From NCBI GenBank assembly GCA_965287045.1, contig OZ336886.1:25668001-25732000 (forward strand): a stretch of DNA of 64,000 bases. Reading direction: 5' to 3'. Positions within the stretch are counted from its first letter, which is position 1, and the number at the start of each line of letters is the position of its first letter. Below are positions 11,855-63,876 of this stretch, piece by piece. The translations under genes were made by a program, and so were the position numbers. The notes beneath the pieces are model-generated. The model was not told where the DNA came from. It did no database searches and worked only from the letters and a program-made list of their open reading frames with translations. The stretch is from Carcharhinus amblyrhynchos. Taxonomy: Eukaryota.

Positions 11855-14800
11855 TATGATAAGGCAAATATAAGGTACATATGAATTAACAAGCCAAATA
11901 TGTGTGAACATACATTGCACAATAGATGACAGATGCGACTAAAACAAATTCCACGAATTACTCAACAGTTCCACTCAGACATCAGTAGCAGCCAATATCA
12001 CTGAAACTCTCTGCCTCACAAGGAATTCCAGTCTTCACCTTTGAAGATCTTCCTTGGAATTCTCTCCGACAGTCGCTCCAACTTAGATGACTTTGAAATC
12101 CTGCAAGGTGGATCATTTTCAATCTTGTCTCACAAGATTCTGTTCCTCTGGATCCCAGAGTACTCCTTCAAGCACCAACTCACAAGCACAATTTCATCTC
12201 CTCAGCCACATCAAGCAGAACACAAATATTCCAAAGGGGTAACTTTGCCCCAGTCGCTCATATCACAGTGTCACTAGTCTTCAGTTGCCTTCTTGGTTCT
12301 TCAGGGATTCTCTTGAACCCGCTTCAATTGCCAGACACAGATGGCATCACCAACAGCCAACCTAACAGAGTTTCAATTGCACCTCTTGAGATTCTGTTCC
12401 CTTGGATTCCCAAGAATGCATTCAAACAGCAAATTACAGACTCAGCATCTGATCTTTTGTCACACTAAGCAGAATGTTATTGCTCCAAAGGGATACTCTA
12501 ACCCTACTGACCCACAGTGCTTTCCTGTTCAGAACTCATTTTTCTGTTCCTCTCCTTTTCCTTAACTTAACTGGGGCCTGTTTTTTCCCCTTGTCTCTAT
12601 CCCTCATCCGTGACTTTGTTTTGGGACGTCTCCCCATCCTTTCACTTCTCTTGGGGATCTCCTCAGACCCTTGCCTGAGACACAATTTCCCCCTCTCTTT
12701 ATATTCAATTGTGCTGGCCTGTCCTGAGCCCAAAGTACTTATAAATTGTAGCACTGTGCATGCATAGCCCACTCCCGGCACACAAATACACAAAGTCCAA
12801 GGTCTGTTAGGAGTTCCCAACCTCTGAATTCATCAGAGTAAGTAGAGCTTACATTCCCTTGGAAGAAAGAACGCTTCAGTACAGATAAATTTTTCATTTT
12901 GTTCTACAATTATACTTGCTGTATTATAGTTATGAAAGTTTAACCAAAGCAAAGGTCAATACACGTAATAAGTAGGAATAGGAGGATTTAAACATCAAAT
13001 AACTATCTTACTCAGAATCTGCCTTTTGTCCTGCACCCTTTCTTTAAACTTTAAATATAATACCAATAATTACATGATTTTTGGCTACAATCCCTGCATG
13101 ATCAACCAAAGGTATTGAAGATAAATTAAAATTTTCTTTAGAAACATCTTAGCCAGCTTGAACTCTGCTTTGAACTCTGAATTTCAATTTTGCTGGTGTG
13201 ACTGCAAACCAATACTCTAGCTGCCTTCCCCTCTTCACATATGGATGCATATTTGTCACACTATATGCAACAAGTGACTTCTGCATAGGTATTGCAACTT
13301 TAATACGGAAGAATATGAGGGGGTTTTCTTCGTTCTTTCTGTTAATGGAAACATGCCTCCAAAAGGTCTTTAAGTTTGCCAAGGGAACTGGGTGTGTCTG
13401 CTGACAATGAGCTTCAAAATTATCTTCCTCAATACTGCCTTCGTAACAGACTTTCTCTTTTCATTATTTTGATCAACAACTGATTAATATGTTTGCATGA
13501 AGGGAGTTTTGCTATCTGTACTCAAGTCAATTTTACTTTATTCACAATTTGTGCCAGAGCCTTCAGAACATATTCACACGCTTCCTATTGATGTTGCCAA
13601 ATTTGAATTATCATTTCCACTTTTTTTTATAATTTTATTTATATACTTGTTTCTTCTCTTATTTTCCAATTCGTTTTTAAGTTTTTCAGTTAGCTGCAAA
13701 ACCTTTATACAAGTTTAACAACTTTGCATGGACATTCGGGTACTTTTAAAATATGGTTACTGACCACTTTTCAATTCACTCATGAGCTCCTCAATCTTTC
13801 TCTTTTAATTTTCCTCATGTGCTTTTAATGTCTGGATCTGCTCTCACATATCAATGTTTCATCTTCCATGTTCTCCAGATCGTATCAGAGATCAACTGCC
13901 CTTTTCAAAATGCAGTTCCAACAGTTCATCAGTCTTGATTTTTAATTCTGCTTTCAACAAACTGTTCTGATTCATCACCAACATCTTCTCCTGGTCAAGG
14001 CATTTCTGCTGATACTTAGGGACTTCTGATGCTTGAAGTTCAACAAGTTTTACCTTAACATCTACCTTTGTTGAATTTGCTTCTACAAGTTTATCATTCA
14101 GACATTTCAAGTTCTCATTCAAGTGTTCTACTTCCTACCACCAACACTCAAATGCTCTCACTAGATCTTGTTTTTCATTAGCAAATTCATTTCTTGTGTG
14201 TGAAAGTTGGTCCTCAACACTAATCAGATTTTCCTTCAATTGCTCATTATTGGCAATATGCTTCTCATGTGTGGCCACAATAAGTTTTAGGAGTTTGACA
14301 AGATTAGCAGAATCGAACACTGGCTGCATCACAGTAACATGGTGATAACTATCTATGATAGCCAAATCAGTGTCCAGAAAAAAATTTACCCCTTCAATAG
14401 ATAAACTGGGAACAATTTCCACAGTAACAATTCCATTTACTCAGTCAAACTGTAAACTGACTTTATACAAGGGAACAAGTTCACTTCATCAAACTATCTG
14501 GAATACAAAATGCATCATCAACCACCATCAGTGACTTATCTGCCCGAATGTTTCTCAAAATATTGATTTGTTTACTTTATTTGACACAAGCATGAGCAAA
14601 CATTTCTCCCTTTGAGATAAAACTTCTAAAACCTGCATTGGCATGATTCACTTCAAGGGAGAATTATCTGGACTACCCTGAGTCATATCCTCCTTTCTAG
14701 GTCTGAGGGAATGTATTTCACTTGTACTATTGCTATGAGTTTATCACTTTTTTTTTATAAGCCTCTTTAAACATTTATAGGACTGTGACCAGTTTATCAT

Positions 14801-17242
14801 TAGATTTCCAACAACTGGCTTTGAGCTGCCCTACCTTATGACAAAAAAAATACCAGTTTCTTTGCATCCTTTTTATTCTCGACGTCATCATTTTTATTGA
14901 CTGGAAAAAGCTTCTGCCTTCTGCATAAAGTTAGACTGTTTTCTATTGCCCCAGTTTCCCCAAGGATTTAAAACTGGAGATCTACTGCCCACGAGTTGCC
15001 TCTATGATTTATCATATCCATCAGCCAAAACTACTGCCTCTCCTATCCTAGAAAACTTATGGTATTCCAGGTATGACCCATAGTACTATTTTGAAATTCT
15101 TCCAGAGTTTGCACCCTTAAATTCCAAATGTTTGTTCTGAGTTCTGTGATTGAAAACACATCATTTCTTTCTCCCTGGAAAATACTATAAATGTCTCACT
15201 CAATCTTTTCTTTGAAGATCAAAATTCCAATTGATATGCTGCAGAGACCAACCCGTAAGCAGTAAGTACAGCAGTTTAACTACTTCATAATCGGAAAATC
15301 TTTCTTCTGAAAGGCAAGAATACATAGTCATAGCCTGATCAACCAAAACATTTTAGAAAATGAGAGTCCTTGTGTCCTTTGGCTATTTTAGCTTTGCAGC
15401 AACATTTTCAAATGAGATAAAATATCTCAACTCCATATTCCATGAATTTACACAATAAGCAAAGGCTCTTTATAATATCAAAGCTCGGAATAGGACTCAT
15501 TTCCTCACCTGAACTACTCCACTCCCTTTCATCCAGTAATCCTAATATTTTCTCTAGCCAGTTCAGCTATCTAATTTCTTTCTCTCTTGGGAGCTTTCGA
15601 TCTTTTTTCTTACATCTTTCCTCCCTCAGTGACTTTTCTCTCTGCAGTTCGAGCTCTTTCATTATTTTTCCATCTTAAGTTGCTTTATCTGCAACTGAGT
15701 TCCAATGCGAGATGCCGTACTATTACCTCAGTTACATCTGCTTTCATAGCTCCTGCTTTTAACTCTAATTCAACATTTATGCAATTAACCTAGCCTAGGT
15801 TAGTTGTTTGAAATAATTCAAAAATAAATCTTCCCTCTTCAGAGAAGTTACAGCAATTAACAAAGCAATTCTGATTTTCAATTGGTGTAGCAAAATTCAA
15901 CATGGAAATCCTATCAAACTTAACCTCAGCAAATATCAGCACTTATATTTATCCATGCATTTGGAATCCAACGAGATCTTCCTCCAATTTATGTTATGAA
16001 CCTTGGCCAGACCCCCACGTCTTCGGTAAGATTTGGCCTGGGACCACTGAAGTTTTGTTTAAAGTAGACAAACTCTTAGATTCAATACAATTGCTTAGCA
16101 AAAAGAGTCACAAGATTCCAAGTGTTTTGAGCAAATAAAAATGAGCTTTACTATACAAGGTCAGAGCAACAAAGCAATTTACAATATAATATTCAAAGCT
16201 AATATGGGTTACGTATGAATCAACAGGAAAACTGTGGTTGAACACACCACACTGCACAACAAATGACAGATGCAACTAAAACAGATTCCACAGGTTTCTC
16301 AACAACTCATCCAAATACTGGTAAAACTGGGTCAATCGATCTCACTAAAATCCATGTCTTTCACAAGGGGTTAAAATCTTCACCTTTGAAGATCTCACCT
16401 TGGAATTCTCCCCAACAGTCACTCCAACTCAGACAGCTTCAACAAAAGCCCACCTTGCAGTGTTTCAATCTTGTCTAGTGAGGTTCTGTTCCTTTACGTT
16501 TCTGAGTACTCACCAAAGCACCAAATTATAAACAAAATTCAGCTCTTCGGCACAGTGGGCAGAACACTGCTCCTCCAATGACTTACAGCATATAGTCACC
16601 AAACTTGATCTGTCTTCTCAGATATTTAAGATTATTTGTGAGCCCTCTTCAATTAGTAAACTTGGACATCACCAACAATAGTCTATCTTTCAGGGTTTCA
16701 GTTTTGTCACCTGCAGTTTTGTTCACCTGAATGTCCAAGTATGCGCTCAAACACCAAATTACACAAACTTCAGATCTTTGGCTGCGCCATGCAGTACACT
16801 ACTGCCCTACAGTGGTACCCTTGTACCAAAGGCCAGCAGCCCTTTTCTTATTTGGAGCTTGTTTCTTTGCCCCTCTCTTTTTCCTCAACTTAAATTGGAT
16901 GCTGCTTCTGTTCACCTGTCTTCTACTTGGGGCTTTTTTTGGGAGATTTCTCCCAGTCCTCTTTCTCCTTTTTTGGACTTCTCAGTCTCCTCTTCCTGCC
17001 CTGCCTGGGACCCAAATTTTTCAAGGCACTCCACTTCCCATCACCTTACCCAGATTCTCATATCTTTATTTCACTTACCGTAAGCGCATAGACGCTGAGC
17101 CTTTTCTGGGCACAGAGAACTTATGAATTGCAGAACTGTGCATCCCGTTCCCAGCTTGCGCATACTTAAAAAGTCCAAGATCTGTTAGAAGTTGAAGTTT
17201 CCAACTTCAAAGCACAATAGGGTAAGTATAGCTTTCATAACA
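11855..17242 (-). mobile_element. Non-autonomous Gmr1/Gypsy-like LTR retroelement (gag-protease plus TPR-like cargo)
   Basis: Diverged direct repeats ~11855-12853 and 15992-17242; the latter is bounded by TGTTATGAA...TTCATAACA. Degenerate PBS next to 15991 and PPT-like tract near 12855-12870. Gag capsid/SCAN-like motif (YFISFENVAAKLK.PKD...AVLTAYGLV), zinc-knuckle relic (CHKVGQLKASCW, ~14810-14850) and protease relic (ILRNIRA for ILRDTGA). Confidence 0.82.
13540..14280 (-). pseudogene. TPR: Intronless TPR (nuclear basket nucleoporin) N-terminal coiled-coil copy inside the LTR element
   Basis: EKQDLVRAFECWW*EVEHLNENLKCLNDKLVEANSTKVDVKVKLVELQASEV.KYQQKCLDQEK...LKAELKIKTDELLELHFEKG, then NVHAKLLNLYK and LENKRRNKYINKIIKKVE. 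These align by eye with recalled human TPR segments [52 protein letters not shown]...ELKTKTDELLALGREKG, NAHIKLSNLYK and LENKRINKYLDEIVKEVE. Stops, frameshifts and an internal deletion are present. Confidence 0.85.
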
Positions 17243-17560
17243 GTAATATTTCCAAATTTGTTTATGACACACAACCAGAATGCGAGTTCTCAGAAACTTT
17301 CAAGGGGATTTAGATAGATTAAGTGAATGGACAGGAATGGACAAGAAATTATCCAGTTGAGGAGGATAACCAGAAATGCAGTGTATTTTTTAAATGGTGA
17401 AAGAATGGGAAGTGATGCTCAAAGGGACATGAGTGTCTTGTTCATAAGTCACAAAGTTAAAATGCAAATAAGGAAGGCAAATTGTACAGTGCTATTTATT
17501 GCAAGGGGATTTGAATAAAAGGAGGAAAGTCTTGTTGCAGTTGTTTTGAGCCTTGGTGAG
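17243..17560 (+). mobile_element. Old CR1 RT fragment
   Basis: NISKFVYDT...QGDLDRLSEW...QRDMSVL...IRKAN..LFIARGFE. Confidence 0.75.
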
Positions 17561-18439
17561 TAAAATTCAGCACGAAAATCTTAGCAAACTTAACCTCAGC
17601 AAATATCAGCACTCATATTTATCCATACATTTGGAATCCTGAGATTCACAAGCCTAAAACCTTTGCCAGGTGCCAAAAATTAAATACTGCAGAGGGTCTA
17701 GAGGAGTATATTATATGTAGGGGTGAAGCTACATGGATATTTTGAAAGCAAATAGAGGGTATGAAAAAATATTTGGAAAAATACCCAAAGAAAATCCGAG
17801 GATGAATTATAAATACAAAAAGAGCAAGTGAATAAACTAAGAAAGGAGAAGGACCTATTACAACCAGAATGGAAACCTGCCCCTATCTCAGAAGTCTGAT
17901 ATCGTTTGCATTGAACAACATTCATGTGAACTCAATTGATATTGGTGACACTCAAAAGCAATCATTTAGCTATCATTTATCATCCATTGCACTCAAAGTA
18001 ATGATTTAGCTATTATGTGATATCAATTACACTTAAAAGTAATCATTTAGTGAATATTTGACATTGGTTTTAAGTGCAAACAATAATTTTGGTTATCAAA
18101 CTGTACAAGTACCATAAGCATCAACTGTCACAAACCATAGTGCTTAAACATTCGCAGTTAAATCACTTAAGCATTTGGACACCAAAAACAATCATAAAGT
18201 TTATTTTCCCTATTTCTGAGTTCATAAAGATTCATACACCACAAAACTGAGATAACTTTAGAAGATGCACTCATTTTTGATGAATTTTCTTTGTGTCGTT
18301 CTTTGTAACCTTTACTCATGCACTTGCTCTATTTACTCTTCACACTGTAGCCCTCTCTAAGCATAATAGAAACACATTTGGAATTGAACCAACCCCGATG
18401 CATACAAACATTTGTCCAACATGAATCTAACTACAGATT

Positions 18440-26048: not shown

Positions 26049-26350
26049 CATAAGAAATAGGAGCAGGAGTAGGCCATCTAGCCCTTCGAGCCTGCCCCGC
26101 CATTCAATAAGATCATGGCTGATCTGTTGTGGCTCAGTTCCACTTTCCCGCCCTCTCCCCATAACCCTTAATCCCCTCTCTTATCAAAAACCCATCAACC
26201 CGCGTCTTAAATATATTTAGCGAGGCAGCCTCCACCACTTCAACGGGCAGAGAATTCCAGAGATTCACCACCCTTTGAGTGAAGACGTTCCTCCTCAAGT
26301 CCGTTCTAAACTGCACCCCCCTTATCTTGAGGCTGTGCCCTCTAGTCCTG
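26049..26350 (-). mobile_element. Young 5'-truncated CR1 3' end
   Basis: Near-identical reverse complement of ~27850-28150; ORF ends GYGERAGKWN. Confidence 0.93.
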
Positions 26351-27082
26351 AAAGTCCAATTCAGTCCAATTCAGTCCCGGGCTGACGAATTACACCAAAA
26401 ACAGATTGAAAATATATGAAAATTACTTACCTGGTCTTACCAGCAGTTTCCAACGCAGATCTGATGGCTCCAGAAATCAAGGCGCTGGAGGATGCGCTTG
26501 CAGCGGGAACTCATGCATGAATCCCACACATGCCCGCCTGAGAGATTCTCCCACCCCAATATGCTAGAAAATTAGCATCGTAGGTGAGAAATCACCCCGT
26601 TAAATAGTGCTCCAAAGTGTCAAAGGAGAAAAACTCAAGAACAAATCACTTTTTGTACATACCCTGAATATCTGTAAGAATATTTCACACAAAACATTTC
26701 AGTCATCATGATCGAAAATGTGAAACATATTTGCTTGCACAAAAATATTGTTCTATTATTATGAAAGTAGATATGTTATAAAAGTAAAATATTTGAATCT
26801 CTAGTTTTTAAAACTATTCGTAACACCTTGATCCTAGATGTCACCAATTCAGAGAAATATTCCACATTAGTAATATAGGAAATTTTAGGATTCAGCTATC
26901 CCTCAGTCATCCTCACATCAGTTAGCTTGTCCATATTTCCATTGGACCTGTTTTGAATGTACTCTTCAGTGTTCTGCAATGAAAAATACCTACAATGCAA
27001 TTCAGAGTTCTAATATGATTTATTTAGCTTATTTTGGTATATGAAATTTGTTCTTTGATGATCAAATCAGAAGGAACAGTAT

Positions 27083-28157
27083 GGCAGAGAGTGGGGGTCA
27101 ATGGGTGCTATTCGGATTGGCGGTTGGTGACTAGTGGGGTGCCCCAGGGGTCGGTGCTGGGGCCTCAGCTATTTACCATTTATATAGATGATCTGGAGGA
27201 GGGAACCGAGTGTAGGGTGTCGAAATTTGCTGATGACACCAAGATTGGGGGAAAGGCAAATTGTGCGGAGGGTGTGGAGAGTCTGCAGAAGGATCTAGAT
27301 AGGCTGGGCGAATGGGCCAGGAAATGGCAAATGGAATTTAATGTTGGCAAGTGTGAGGTGGTCCACTTTGGTAGGAAGAATGGTAGGAAGGACTATTACT
27401 TACGTGGAGAAAAACTGCAGCAGGCGACGGTGCAGAGGGACCTCGGGGTCCTTGTGCATGAGTCGCAAAAACCCAGCTTGCAGGTGCAGCAGGTGGTCAG
27501 GAAGGCGAATGGGATGCTGGCCTTCATAGCGAGGGGGATTGAATATAAAAGTAGGGAGGTCTTGCTGCAGCTGTATAGGGCATTGGTAAGGCCGCAGCTG
27601 GAGTACTGTGTGCAGTTTTGGGCGCCGCACCTGCGCAAGGATATTTTGGCCCTGGAGGGAGTGCAGAGGAGGTTCACTAGGCTGATACCGGAGTTGAGGG
27701 GGTTGAGCTATGAGGAGAGGCTGAATAAACTAGGCTTGTACTCGCTAGAGTTTAGAAGAATGAGGGGAGATCTCATTGAGACGTATAAGATGATGAATGG
27801 GATGGATAGGATAGAGGTGGAGAGACTCTTCCCGCTCAAAAAAGACAGTAGGACTAGGGGGCACAGCCTCAAGATAAAGGGGAGGCGGTTTAGAACGGAG
27901 TTGAGGAGGAACTTCTTCACTCAAAGGGTGGTGAATCTCTGGAATTCTCTGCCCGTTGAAGTGGTGGAGGCTGCCTCGCTAAATATTTTTAAGAAGCGGG
28001 TTGATGGGTTTTTGATAAGAGAGGGGATTAAGGGTTATGGGGAGAGGGCGGGAAAGTGGAACTGAGCCATAACAGATCAGCCATGATCTTATTGAATGGC
28101 GGGGCAGGCTCGAAGGGCTAGATGGCCTACTCCTGCTCCTATTTCTTATGTTCTTAT
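27083..28157 (+). mobile_element. Young 5'-truncated CR1 LINE with uninterrupted RT C-terminal ORF
   Basis: QRVGVNG...SGVPQGSVLGPQLFTIYIDDL...KFADDTK...RTRGHSLK open to the stop at 28065; GC/CpG-rich; 3' tail ATTTCTTATGTTCTTAT. Confidence 0.97.
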
Positions 28158-46826: not shown

Positions 46827-48040
46827 GGTTAAAATGATCCCTATTTAAAGACTAAAACAAAGTAATTAGACTCTAATGTAAAACAAAGTCAATGGCTGTT
46901 GAAACATAGTAATTAGTCACATTTAAGGTGTTTGTGAAACTTCATCTGTTGTCCCCATCAAGTTTACTTAGAAAAATAAGATTTCTAATCTTTCCTTTTG
47001 GACCAAATATCCTTTTTGGTATGCATCCCATACCTTTCTGTTGTAAGGAGACCGCATTCTTACTGCAAACCAATCTCGGTAAATGAATATTCTCAGTAGC
47101 GAAGGTTCAGATTTATTCAAACACAGTCCAATAAAGATACAAATATAAAGTGTTTTTTTAAAATCAGGCATTTACATCATTGCTGTCAAATTGACAATAC
47201 TTGACTTTTGAAGCCGCTAAAGGGGCTTTTGCCTGCTGATTCCCTGAATGAATTCATCAGCACCTGCTTGTACTTAGCTTGTGCATTGACTCAAATCAAA
47301 GATTATATATTTCTTGGAAAGGTCTATTGCTTCATTTCCAGCACCATCGCCATTCCAGGTGTGTACTAATAAATACAGACTGTTATAAAAAGTTTAATTG
47401 CAATGAAACACCAACAAGAACAATTGTGATGATATATTCTGAAATGTCTTTTCAAGAATTAGATGTTCATTTGATTTGATTTAATATTGTCAAATGTATT
47501 GATAGAAACTTTAGATAGTTTTCAGTTGATCTCTCACCTTGAGACAAACCAGTCTTGCTCCAAAACAATAGTGGCCCTAGCACAGACTAGCAAAACCATC
47601 AGATTTATAAATTTATGTTTTTCCAGTTTTGCCATAATGTTTAAGCTGTAATACATTCAGGATCAGAATATTCTCTAGTGAAATCAGTCAGTAGGCCAGT
47701 GGGATGGAGTTGAGAGGGATGACTGAATTCAGAAAGGAATTACATAGCCTAAAATTAATTTTCAGTAACTTGCAAACATGTTTATTAGTGCTGGAGGAAT
47801 TTGGGTTAGAAAATAAGTTTTTGCTTATGTATGTATAAACTTAGCACTTTTAAGTAGGTGTGATCTGAAAGTGGTGTTTACCACTAATATTTTTAAATTA
47901 CAACATCTTGTTGTGGAGACAAGTTCATTGTATCAGTTCAATAATAATTTTGCAACAAAGCTTTTTATCCTTTAAGTTTGTGACACATTGCAAACTGTGT
48001 TTTAAAAATTATCTCCATTGTTTTCAATTATAGGTAAAAG

Positions 48041-49206
48041 ATGGTGAGTAAGGAACCAAGCAAATGCCAACTCAGTACAGAGAATGAAGCTGAGCAAGCA
48101 GCTTGCCAAACACTGGAAATGAAGTATGTACTGGATCCAAATAGGCAGATTAGAAAAAGAAATAAAGCCCTACAGGTGAGATTTAAAGATATTCGGGAAG
48201 CTCAGAATGAACAAGAGAAGAGGCTTTCTGCAGCACAGCAACTGGACAAAAAAACAATGAAAGCTATTTCTTATAAGGCAGCATATTGCAAATACATGAC
48301 AGTGCCTGCACGGAGGTCAATCCCAAATGTAACCAGAAGCACAGGTGTGCAGACATCACCTGATCTCAAAAAGCGGTATCAGACATTCCCTTTGGAAAGG
48401 AAGAAAGTGAATGTCATTAAAATTGCTCCAACAGTTGACACATTCAGGCGACAAAATAATGATTGGGCAGTTAATAGTAAGCCCAATAAAGACTCAGGAG
48501 TACTCACAATTAGCAGTGCAGAGGGGACAAATCAAAAGAACCCAGATACCAGCTCAAATAATATTTTCATCAAAGTGAATAAACAAGCTGATAGTGACAG
48601 CTTTGGTGATTCAAGCAGCAAAGATCCAGAAGAGCCCTCTCATGTATTAACGTTGACCGATTCTGACCCAACTGAGCAAAATTACCAGTTGTGCAATATG
48701 GCAAAATATGATAAGGGGGCATCAGAAAATCAGAACTTTAATCAATCAGCATTATGTGAGCTGCAGCTAACGGAGTGCTCCTCCTTCCACTTAACAGAAG
48801 CCAACTGTGAACTTAAACAGCTTGATTCTTCTAATTCTTTTACACAGGACTCCCCACAAAATGTGACAGCACGGGAAGTACATGAAAGAACTTTGCATCC
48901 AACCAGTCTGCATTCTCTGCCAGTGAATAGTCAAGCCTGTTCATTACAATCCCCGCAAAGTGAAGGAGAGCCCTCTGAATCCACTGTATCAAACATTACA
49001 CCCAGAGATGAAAGTCAAATTCAGTCTAATCAGGCAGCAGTATCTGTAATGGAGACAAATCAGCAAATCATGCCTCTTACAGAAGCGGTGGATCTGAAAG
49101 CACAGCTGCAAATAATGGAAAACCTGATCAGTTCCAGTCAGGAAACCATTAAGGTGTTACTTGGGGTTATTCAAGAATTAGAAAAAGGTGAAGCCCTCAG
49201 AGAAGG
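48041..49206 (+). CDS. INSYN2A: Inhibitory synaptic factor 2A (FAM196A), first coding exon
   Basis: MVSK...LEMKYVLDPNRQIRKRNKALQVRFKDI...KYMTVPARRSIPNVTRSTGVQTSPDLKK and DLKAQLQIMENLISSSQETIKVLLGVIQELEKGEA are INSYN2A motifs. Acceptor AG at 48032-48033; phase-2 donor GG|GTAAGA. Confidence 0.96.
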
Positions 49207-51529
49207 GTAAGATCACAAAAAATTGTTTTATGAAAAGGTATACACGTATATACTAGTTTAAAAATGAATGTCCAAATAACAGAAGTCAGGAATAGAACTG
49301 TTACATGACTATCTAGAAAGTGGGAGATAAGAATAAATGTCAAAATTATTAATGAAATACATACTGCATAAAACAGATGATTCAATTTTAATATATTGAT
49401 CAGTAAAATTCAATGTGGATTCTCCAAATTTCTAAACACCAAGTCTAACAGGACTAAATAAGTTAAACAGCACTTATACGTTTTAGATCAATAGGCAAAG
49501 TGCAATACACAACCAATAGTTCTACTGCCAGTTGCACTTCGCTGCAGGTTACAATGAGGTCATTGAAGAAATAACCTCTTCTTATCCCTGTTAAATAAAT
49601 GTACAAAGTTCTGCTCATGTGACACTCCATTCCAATGTCCCCCAGGAAGTTCTGGACCAGCTGGAGTATTTTCACTGTGGTGATGCCTCTGGTCAGAGTT
49701 ATACTACAGCCAGTGAGAACTGTAAGTGGTATAAGATGATTTCCTGAAGGATTATCATATTTCACAACTAAAGAGTGAGATTGTGATATGAGGAAAGTAT
49801 ACTGAGTATGTTAGTTATGTTCCACCACACTGTTCCTAAATTAAGGAAAATCTGTTATACTACGTTTGCAAAAACAATTACAATCCTTGTTTGATGTAGG
49901 TGGCACTTCATCTCTATTCAATCAAGCAGCATCAACATGAAGCACATAAGTCATATACACATGGCTGAATGAAGTTCCACTGGGAGGAGTTGATAACAAA
50001 CTCCTTTTTAATTTAGTTCAATCTGTAAAGACTCTTTTAAATGCCTTTAAAAAATCCTTACAAAACTGTTTTGTGAATTAAATCTGAAGTTCTCAGATTA
50101 TAAGTAATTGTGTTATTTTTGATTTTAAAAAGTAATCAGATTTGCAACCCAAACTAAGAAAAATTAAAATTCCACAAATTAGAAGGCGAGGACCAAAATG
50201 GGAAAATAAATAAAACAAGTCTATTAAAACTTAGGCAAGCTAGAAAAAGAAACACAACTGAGACCATTTTAACAATGTCCAAACCAGCAATTTTGAAAAA
50301 AATACATCAGGATATATTTTAAGAGTCATGTAGGATTTTAATAGACTAGTCAAGGAAGAGGGATATTTGATAGAAGTGAATTATAAAGGAAAAAATAAAA
50401 CAGAAGGTAAATTTGACGTACATTTGGAAGCACTTATATTATCTTTTCAAAACTAATCCAATTTATTCTTTATTAATATTTGATTATATGAGGCAGTAGG
50501 TAAGAAATCACTGTTGCTGTTATTAGGGGACAAGCAATTAGTGCAATCATATAACATTCTTTCTTCCAGTATTTTAATCCTTTAATATAGTAATTTCTAG
50601 TCTTTTATGTATTCAATCCAAGACATCATGATCGATTATTCAACAAAGAGCCATAGTCACCTTGGTGTGAACAGTAACCTTGACAAATGTTTCCAAACAA
50701 TCAACATTTTTCAGCTTTCAGCTTTTAAGTTACCAATAATTGATTTAGGAAATAGTTGAAATTAAGCTTTCAAACAATTCAAGTAACTAAATGAAAATAA
50801 TGTTTTTGCATTATGCAAAAAGCAGATTTTATTAAAATATATTTAATTTATTGTAAAGGATTAGACCTATGTTGATGTGAATATCGTCCAACTAAAAAAC
50901 AATGATGGCTTTATGTGCTTAGCTGCTGTATAAATGGCTTTTCTAATCAATTAATGTATTACATTCATGGAAGTCCTCAATACCATAATGCCTATTTGCT
51001 CCCTTTAAGAGTTTTATTTATTAAATTACTATCAGCCTTTATATGTGGTCTTTGTTTTCAATTGCATGATTGGAAATAATTGCCCTAGTATTAGTTTGAA
51101 GGCAGGGAGGGAGTAGGGTAGATGCTATTTTGTGGTTAGGATGCACAGAAGACCAGAGGAATAGGAGAGAGGTCAAAGACTGCAGCCAGGGAATGTAAAG
51201 GAGGGAAAAAGCGAGAGATTGGAAAGAAAAAAGGATGGTGGGAAATTGCAAATGGAGGGGATGGGGAAAAGGAGCAACATTACCACTGAGCTGCATGGGT
51301 GCATTGCCACACAGCCTCATTATAATATTAAAAGGAATGCGCCACCTCCTGGGAGCAGATTAGTTGTCTGCCTTCATCCTGCCTCCATTAAAAGTGGAAG
51401 TCAGTGAGCTTGAAATAGACTTAAGACTTAAACATCCCACATGGCTCAAATTCAGCCTTTTTTGAGGTTGAATGATCTTCAATAGTTCATAAATTGCAGC
51501 AAACTTTTTCTTCTTCATTTAGAAATATG

Positions 51530-62519: not shown

Positions 62520-63876
62520 TGTTACACTCTAATATAGACCAATAACTTTTTGTTCAAAATAGAGAAATCTCAGTTACCCACTGGAAGAATAAAGCCACAA
62601 GATTCCATGGTTTTAAACAAACAAAATAATCTTTACAAATCTGAAAAGTAAAACAATCTACAATCTCTATCATACTCTAACATTCAGAATAAACATGAGA
62701 TAATCATGGTTAACAGGCAAACCATGGTCAAACCCACACTGCACATTAAATGGCAGATGTAACCAAGACATATCCCATGGTTTTCCTCAGCAGCCCTCCC
62801 ATACATCAGTGATCACTGAGAGTCACAATCTCTCATTCAAACTCTGTTTTCCTTACAAATGAAATTATAGCTTTTTAGAAGCAGTAGAAATTTGCCCAAG
62901 ACATCTGAAATACAGGAGATGCTTTAACAAAACATCAAATCCTCACTTTCAAAGATCTGGCCTCTGAATTTACTCAAAAGCCACTTCAACTTGGACAGCC
63001 TCAAGGACTGCTGAACTCACAATGCTTCATTTTCATCTCTTGAGACACGGATTCAGGAAGCTGCACTCCCACCTCCAATTATCAGTATACCTCAAAGTAT
63101 TTACAGTCCTCTAGATTCACTGGATGTTTTTGAACTTCAGTCTCCCTGCCACTCTGTCAACTCCCCAGGAATTCCCTTGAACCGCATCTGCACAGATCAG
63201 CTCCCAGGGCCTATCTGGGAGCTACAAACCACACAAAGTCCAAATTGCAATTAACAGCCTTACCGAATGTTCCCAGATCTTATCCTGTGCCCTAACAGCC
63301 TAGAGCCTGCTAACAGCAGCACATTTTTAGTGTGGTGCCTCTTCACCTGCTTCAAAATGCTCAGAAAATACACTGATATATTGAAAGCAAAAACCTTATG
63401 TTCCAATCATCTCCAGGGTAATGTAGCATTTCATTGTTGACCGAATGATTTTAAACTAATTTAGCTCCAAGTCCCAAAACAAAACAACTTTTCGGACTGC
63501 ACTTCTTTGCAAGCAGCAGAAACGTCACAGGTGGGATTTTCCGGCCACGCTCGCCCCGAAACTGGAAAATCCTGCCTGAGATCAATGGACCTTTCCATGG
63601 TCCGCCCCTCACTCGCTACGATTCCTGGGGAGAGTGGAATGGCAAAATTTGCCCCCTCATTTCTAGCTCTTCAGCTAAATAAGCACACCTGTTTTAGGAT
63701 CTTACCCTTCTAGCAGTTAATCCCTTAAATCAACATGGCCCCACCTTCTAATTGTAATAGCCTCCAAACTAGTTAGTTGCATTTATCCCATTTTCTGCAA
63801 TTAAATTTTCATCTTGCCAGAACAAAACATTATCTCTAAAATATTAACATGAACGATGATCTAGATATTTGTAACA
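62520..63876 (-). mobile_element. Solo LTR related to the LTRs of the 11855-17242 element
   Basis: TGTTACA...TGTAACA termini; 62595-62820 resembles 16105-16330 (cacaagattcca...ccacactgcaca..aaatg.cagatg). Confidence 0.65.
63531..63657. mobile_element. MITE inserted in the solo LTR
   Basis: Inverted ends gggattttcc and gcaaaatttgcccc; similar to 1594-1730. Confidence 0.55.

Follow-up and report, generated by a model that had tools for sequence, protein, structure and literature searches.

Acutely transforming retroviruses carry Gag-onc fusions, in which host coding sequence is fused to the Gag of a defective element that is helped in trans. In LTR-mediated retroposition, a spliced mRNA replaces the internal ORFs between two LTRs without a poly-A tract, the template switch of the proposed model leaves microhomology at the switch point (median, 6 bp), and the product can itself be copied again as a non-autonomous element (Tan et al. 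2016, PMC5131818). The crocodilian lineages CrocERV29 (KIT-ligand) and CrocERV31 (nectin3) are vertebrate LTR elements, shared across species, that carry a host mRNA under purifying selection (PMC4299795). Host fragments have also joined the proteins of TE families and become fixed there (Abrusan et al. 2013, PMC3597677), and the N-terminal coil of TPR, 140 to 230 residues long, is the part fused in TPR-MET, TPR-RAF and TPR-NTRK1, where it activates the kinases (PMC3258255). LTR-mediated capture, the crocodilian captures and Gag fusions are kinds of event that are already known.

We analyzed a 64,000-nucleotide stretch of the genome of the shark Carcharhinus amblyrhynchos (contig OZ336886.1, positions 25,668,001 to 25,732,000), called the window below, and the family of elements to which one of its insertions belongs. 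In this family, spliced TPR was captured, pol was lost, and the element amplified, branched and recombined. The high-copy TPR-bearing family is real and apparently previously undescribed. It resembles the products of LTR-mediated retroposition in its spliced cargo, in the absence of poly-A and in a switch match of 6 nt, but those products are young and occupy one or a few sites, whereas the shark family has at least 134 copies in several sub-branches. The portion of that article available to us does not mention an in-frame Gag-protease fusion, and the shark family keeps its frame through repeated rearrangement. The crocodilian elements are retroviruses of 6 to 9 copies that kept pol and hold the host ORF separately or in place of env, whereas the shark family is of Gypsy type, has lost pol and has its nucleoporin cargo fused into the polyprotein. 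With Gmr1-type Ty3/Gypsy elements it shares Gag and protease, long LTRs and a tRNA-Pro primer site, and it differs from them in having TPR in place of pol. Unlike Gag-onc fusions and TPR oncogenes, it is a germ-line family with neither kinase nor env and no sign of transforming activity. Neither TPR nor another nucleoporin appears in the text of PMC3597677 or in four of its five supplements, and we found no report of either in an element polyprotein in a search that lay mostly outside subscription journals and Repbase/Dfam. Gene captures by animal LTR elements are usually few, young or dead ends; here, a single capture gave rise to a family, hundreds of copies strong, that branched, recombined with sister families and kept one frame, and that thus leaves a rare fossil trace of selection acting on a domain of host origin in a Gypsy polyprotein.

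As an earlier note made from the sequence of the window had proposed, the minus strand contains TPR-like sequence: it matches Pfam PF25481 (E 4.6e-9), and the best protein match is whale-shark TPRb (67% identity, E 1.8e-30); TPR crystal constructs match the frame weakly. We mapped the host TPR gene to C9:56.26-56.29 Mb of the 2.9-Gb genome, where exons 1 to 13 have GT-AG joints and an open frame. The window copy aligned with the spliced host coding sequence (CDS) over nt 11 to 102 (72%), 310 to 789 (76%) and 841 to 895 (78%), for an overall 72 to 78% DNA identity to exons 1 to 12, and shorter pieces extend the match to about nt 1364. The reported lack of introns was borne out by this match to the host's own spliced exons: the similarity spans exon joints, and the host TPR introns have no match in the window. 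TPR begins directly behind the end of the protease, with about 19 nt of 5'UTR followed by exon 1 (14334-14243), an earlier start than the protein match implied. The capture stops where exon 12 does, at about CDS nt 1395, without poly-A. The piece in the window copy is not contiguous because of four inherited deletions, of 162, 39, 96 and 186 nt, and the stops and small indels in its exons 3 to 12 are private to this copy.

The element (Table 1) is flanked by two LTRs with 72% identity over 949 aligned nt (K2P 0.35), with TG starts at 17237 and 12853 and a CA end at 15992. It has the features of an LTR retrotransposon, namely, long TG...CA repeats, a purine run before the 3' LTR and, in siblings, a tRNA-Pro primer site. 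As the earlier note had stated for integrase and RT, neither these nor RNase H is present before the 3' LTR, and the tail downstream of TPR has no similarity to pol. No target-site duplication is readable for the window copy because its 3' LTR is truncated at about 11860; of 11 copies tried, both ends were found only in the TPR-less L082, which shows no clear duplication. The gag and protease frames of the window copy and three sibling pieces gave no Pfam match, and a related gag matches SCAN (PF02023) below the cut-off. In sibling L146, a natural frame of 200 aa has its closest match in a cluster of zinc-knuckle and retroviral protease proteins (score 0.94), a search of the protein database for longer relatives of it returned none, and sibling L084 retains the DTG protease motif.

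Table 1. Features of the TPR-bearing element, in positions of the window
Feature	Position	Strand	Basis
5' LTR, about 1.25 kb, TG...CA ends	15992..17237	-	LTR-LTR alignment; right end same in sibling copies
Decayed tRNA-Pro primer-binding site, 5 nt behind LTR	15964..15986	-	Siblings closer to complement of tRNA 3' end (by eye)
Broken gag with C-terminal zinc knuckle at about 14852-14808	14790..15880	-	tblastx against related gag loci, E 1e-6 to 2e-3
Broken aspartic protease	14363..14655	-	Frame shift near 14484 and stop near 14442; sibling spacing, translation
Captured TPR 5'UTR (about 19 nt) and exon 1 (CDS nt 11-102)	14243..14363	-	In frame with protease end
Captured spliced TPR exons 3-12 (CDS nt ~259-1395)	13520..14248	-	76-78% identity to host CDS across exon joints
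Non-TPR tail, 73 codons, closing the family's reading frame	13300..13520	-	Shared-stop pattern; stop at 13302
3' untranslated part, short purine run before 3' LTR	12854..13299	-	42 genome matches at 67-80%
3' LTR, final ~200 nt missing	11855..12853	-	LTR-LTR alignment

In a search of the genome, the motif used for the primer site marks tRNA-Pro(tgg) genes, and dozens of dispersed exact matches on G000:C43 and C79 suggest that these contigs carry large tRNA gene arrays. An 88-nt duplicate (90%) of 15882-15969, just behind the primer site, lies at 17553-17639 on the minus strand, 300 nt upstream of the 5' LTR, and is either what is left of a second element or the product of a local duplication. 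A short piece of the same LTR family, 75% alike, lies at 62712-62785.

The protease relic had been read as continuing into TPR in one frame. Its end does so, since 14135-14440 enters TPR and, after one TAG, the frame continues through 13892-14134; the protease stretch beginning ILRNIRA is in another frame in this copy because 35 nt are missing near 14484, where the spacing is 20 in the window copy and 55 in 24 of 45 siblings. The second half of the protease holds an additional stop, located between LVPLYKV and VTVEIV. The copy is dead, as had been stated, and more broken than was recognized. An unbroken Gag-protease-TPR frame is a property of the family, not of the window copy.

When the searches were pooled, TPR sequence was present at no fewer than 134 distinct loci, spread over 34 contigs. 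A search with the junction region gave 43 matches from the best 40 scored of 369 candidates, and a search with TPR protein gave 71 matches from the best 70 scored of 1548 candidates. To avoid circularity, we also picked 35 loci by gag DNA and 35 by protease protein, independently of TPR. TPR was present in 14 of the gag-picked and 19 of the protease-picked loci, and in 27 of the 32 loci from these two sets with a mappable protease end. The 108 loci from the TPR searches included just 7 of 33 copies that had been picked independently, which hints at a true family size of roughly 500 copies. A one-off retrocopy that landed in frame by chance, the alternative raised in the earlier note, is rejected by the number of loci, by the junction common to many copies and by the 27 independently picked carriers, and an L1-type processed pseudogene inside an element is rejected by the multi-copy junction and the absence of poly-A where TPR ends in 26 copies. 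We also rejected a domesticated retrogene: the best copy is only 83% identical to host exon 6 (40 scored of 139 candidates), and the longest stop-free frames over the junction are about 200 aa among the copies sampled. All copies examined are old and dead, with no intact copy, transcript or protein seen, and the family is apparently extinct as far as sampled. TPR-like matches in shark genomes are mostly element copies, which is a warning for annotation.

We looked for a protease-TPR chimera in protein collections and found none in 1 match, in 120 of 147 shorter TPR-like proteins or in 22 representative-library matches; P0123, the only match that covers the junction region, is noise. The shorter TPR-like proteins listed include the TPR oncogene-fusion entries P0111 and P0115. 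A ray protein annotated as TMED11-like, P0121, has an 80%-identical TPR stretch and is another TPR chimera or a gene-model error.

The family carries no pol. A same-strand match to integrase, RT or RNase H was found beside TPR at none of 68 TPR loci, in contrast to pol pieces at 12 of 17 related-gag controls; the only pol match among the 68 is on the opposite strand, 3.5 kb from TPR. Eight queries were used in this screen. A finding named in advance as refuting the proposal, a single-copy junction with its own target-site duplication or poly-A among siblings that carry normal pol, did not appear. Gmr1 elements are Ty3/Gypsy elements with integrase before RT and a SCAN-related Gag. Among the pol-bearing relatives, in L179 the protease is followed by integrase, the start of RT and RNase H, in that order, L152 also has integrase before RT, and L140 has integrase remnants behind the same protease subtype. 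The gag and protease of the family match these integrase-first relatives by tblastx (30 to 40% identity, E to 1.5e-6), and the native post-protease linker matches relatives with E 6e-5. Assignment of the family, which itself has no RT, to the clade named Gmr1 (PMC3670739) is supported by this homology of Gag and protease to elements of Gmr1 order. The proposal of a multi-copy, non-autonomous Gmr1-type family with spliced TPR mRNA in frame behind Gag-protease was thus well founded. A sister family with neither TPR nor pol (L082:3700-4480, L086, L094, L100, L108 and L142) has the same LTRs and gag with a different 3' region of about 700 nt, which some TPR copies gained by recombination. TPR was not needed for mobility, since such TPR-less, pol-less siblings also spread.

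The spacing of the junction between protease and TPR is identical, and in frame, in 20 of 34 copies, and 22 of the 34 are in frame overall. Sequence after the protease end corresponds in the copies to the final 19 nt of the TPR 5'UTR, followed by exon 1; identity to the host 5'UTR is 68% over its last 13 nt versus 32% further upstream (20 copies). A 6-nt word is shared, exactly at the junction, by the host 5'UTR and the native-linker copies L072 and L105. The capture is therefore likely to have arisen by a reverse-transcriptase template switch at these 6 nt, which the protease end and the TPR 5'UTR have in common. A donor sequence for the 3' switch, at about CDS nt 1395, was not found. In a second junction type (L055, L072, L074, L138 and L139), the native post-protease linker is kept and TPR starts from exon 2, and only 1 of 5 copies measured is in frame. 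Copy L080 (G000:C13:38.427 Mb) keeps TPR exons 1 and 2 undeleted and is a less-trimmed form.

The reading frame was preserved across the family. Natural stop-free frames run from zinc knuckle to protease in L146 (200 aa) and from protease to TPR exon 1 in L116 (199 aa). Stops shared between copies fall out of frame in 52 of 53 cases from late Gag to the junction (8 copies) and outside one phase in 43 of 43 cases in early Gag (9 copies), where the link to the frame is less sure because of a one-column offset near 15240. A stop is the commonest state in none of 289 TPR codon columns. In the 73-codon tail, all 9 shared stops are out of frame and are followed by an in-frame stop at 13302 in 10 of 10 copies. 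Deletion sizes were taken from block alignments, a permissive alignment having been discarded for spurious gaps. The modal net losses are 201 nt (162 + 39) in 16 of 25 copies, 96 nt in 11 of 15, 186 nt in 18 of 26 and 51 nt in 2 of 5, and a 147-nt deletion was read at its breakpoint in 5 of 6 copies, a branch in which net spacing over a wider span is 148, 148, 148 and 146. In a 16-copy branch, the 3' half is replaced after TPR codon ~233 by the linker of the sister family; one in-frame spacing accounts for 6 of the 11 copies measured, 7 of the 11 are in frame, and the swap enters the protease frame of the sisters in 2 of 3 sisters read. At their modal sizes, all six inherited deletions and both 3' joins keep the frame.

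From the modal spacings we infer a family frame of about 930 codons. The fusion had been suggested to be expressed as part of the polyprotein, and the frame statistics support its translation well; we infer translation because the junction, the deletions, the 3' joins and the shared stops all keep one frame. While active, the family very probably translated a single Gag-protease-TPR protein of about 930 residues.

The frame could also have survived without selection if TPR were a neutral passenger, captured in frame by chance, held in frame by in-phase slippage and spread only by the LTRs and packaging signals. Direct repeats in the TPR coiled-coil CDS are in phase in 53 to 73% of cases, and repeats of 6 to 10 nt lie at three of the six deletions, so slippage alone favors in-frame deletions; the other three, with repeats of only 3 nt, are nevertheless in frame. 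A tree of 64 copies (4 of 68 were left out for short coverage) is star-like, its internal branches being short (sum 1.29) and its terminal branches averaging 0.216, as a passenger would predict, and the comparison with the host is compatible with near-neutral change before amplification. The second junction type, with 1 in-frame copy in 5, also leaves room for a passenger. Against these stand a pair of nested branches, 0.125 and 0.089 substitutions per site long, in which no stop was fixed, the two in-frame 3' joins and a rough hand estimate of 0.005 to 0.015 for the junction and six deletions all keeping frame under the slippage bias. We consider a neutral passenger improbable.

The TPR residues themselves were loosely held. 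The dN/dS against host TPR, called for in the earlier note, could be obtained (0.12), but it is confounded, with copy decay alone reaching a dS of 0.35 of 0.575, and we did not use it as evidence because the host and element branches are inseparable without outgroup DNA. Within the family, non-CpG transitions have an N/S of 0.79 (p 0.011), or 0.77 (p 0.04) in gag- or protease-picked copies, transversions show no N/S signal (0.94), and the CpG-prone class goes the opposite way (2.2). Branch-diagnostic changes on supported branches number 42 N and 22 S, about 0.57 of the ratio of 3.34 for decay (p 0.026). The 61 inherited amino-acid changes include no stop, with 4.2 expected; their conservatism is no greater than under decay (BLOSUM62, -0.05 versus -0.07), and 22 of 61, versus 44%, fall in conserved or hydrophobic columns, with no sparing (p 0.15). 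Because no stops were inherited, yet the changes are neither conservative nor position sparing, selection appears to have acted mainly on the open frame and weakly on TPR residues.

Premature stops destabilize unspliced retroviral RNA. A pattern of purged stops and loosely held residues would be expected if the TPR residues were inert and served as open-frame filler, an open frame near the 3' LTR shielding the unspliced RNA from nonsense-mediated decay or normalizing Gag-protease processing. The stop-free yet unconservative changes point this way, as do the tolerance of large deletions and swapped ends while the frame was held and the continuation of the frame for 73 codons into non-TPR sequence. 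The branch-diagnostic ratio and the non-CpG transitions together go slightly beyond stop avoidance, however, and the TPR-less siblings get by on short frames. We regard filler as rather unlikely.

The explanation that we favor, at about an even chance of being correct, is an ancient Gmr1-type LTR retrotransposon in which spliced TPR exons 1 to 12 would have replaced pol in frame behind the protease, by the template switch at the 6-nt match, and which would have spread non-autonomously with integrase and RT supplied by pol-bearing relatives while translating Gag-protease-TPR. The TPR piece would have had a generic role as a self-pairing coiled coil behind the protease, standing in for the lost pol domains by dimerizing the protease or by gathering Gag on the element's own RNA. 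This role is proposed by analogy, since the same N-terminal part dimerizes kinases in the TPR fusion oncogenes. The 147-nt branch lacks codons ~138 to 187 and the second junction type lacks exon 1, so that little coil is common to all forms, and the heptad register of the deletions (54, 13, 17, 32, 62 and 49 residues), assessed by hand, shows no common pattern.

Two further readings turn on what host TPR does at the pore. TPR limits the export of unspliced Gag/Pol-CTE RNA, for which it needs pore anchoring that depends on L458 together with M489 (PMC3258255). The capture includes the match to L458 (CDS nt 1378) and ends at nt 1395, short of the match to human M489 (nt 1471), so it keeps the N-terminal coil without the full anchor. 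A coil released by the protease might therefore have paired with host TPR as a decoy and raised export of the element's unspliced RNA, and captured host fragments do help Drosophila telomeric elements to suppress silencing (PMC13534243). A host restriction factor would then have become an element-encoded antagonist kept through at least eight rearrangements, which we think is a long shot. In the available part of PMC3258255, where the limits of the fragment are not given, an N-terminal TPR fragment was mostly cytosolic and rescued retention instead of blocking it; this result and the loosely held, unspared TPR residues make the decoy a bad fit, and by acting in trans it would have aided all elements and given its carrier a weak advantage. 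We judge it quite unlikely overall.

In docking at the nuclear pore, the possibility raised in the earlier note, the TPR piece would hold the particle or its DNA at the basket and so help it to enter the nucleus or to choose its site. Nucleoporins are used by retroelements (PMC5909446, PMC3795039), and TPR coils build the basket struts as dimers (PMC11416316). Docking is nonetheless very improbable, because the capture stops short of the M489 match and lacks all C-terminal parts; moreover, the 16-copy branch ends near codon 233, conserved TPR positions are unspared, and the element has no integrase of its own. The best fit is thus a generic self-pairing coil, for which we see a fair prospect, or a plain open frame, which is appreciably less probable. 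As its cargo, the family took up a protein of the nuclear basket by which export of unspliced retroviral RNA is restrained, and the captured portion is the one that activates kinases in TPR oncogene fusions, so the family offers a concrete test of whether elements borrow a dimerizing module or antagonize the basket.

The family is old. Divergence from the column majority is 13 to 29% (median 19%, 64 copies), and LTR pairs have a K2P of 0.29 to 0.35 (five usable pairs of 11 tried). The window stretch was found in 23 public runs from 10 studies and seven organisms, none of them listed as RNA runs, and contigs of four runs match it at about 99, 98, 94 and 94%. The insertion is likely older than several species, because contig identity over the stretch itself is far above the identity between paralogues. 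Among 22 columns at which host and whale-shark TPR differ, the element agrees with the host at 12, with the whale shark at 9 and with neither at 1, and with outgroups it shares 3 host-derived and 3 whale-derived states. The capture may therefore lie near or before the split between host and whale shark; sharks are reported to evolve slowly (PMC10587355).

Several other features of the window and genome were seen. At L177 and L178 (G000:C1:112.67 Mb and C41:5.75 Mb), near-identical retrovirus-like loci unrelated to the TPR family have three long open frames that are gag-, pol- and env-like by position. In the window, 301-nt inverted arms, 97% alike, surround a 345-aa RT frame (Pfam RVT_1) at 26049-28150, which looks like a pair of young LINE 3' ends in opposite orientation and not like a DNA transposon. 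A 390-aa frame of the FAM196 family (INSYN2 type) at 48038-49210 on the plus strand (E 4.8e-98) is the one coding exon of the host that we identified in the window.
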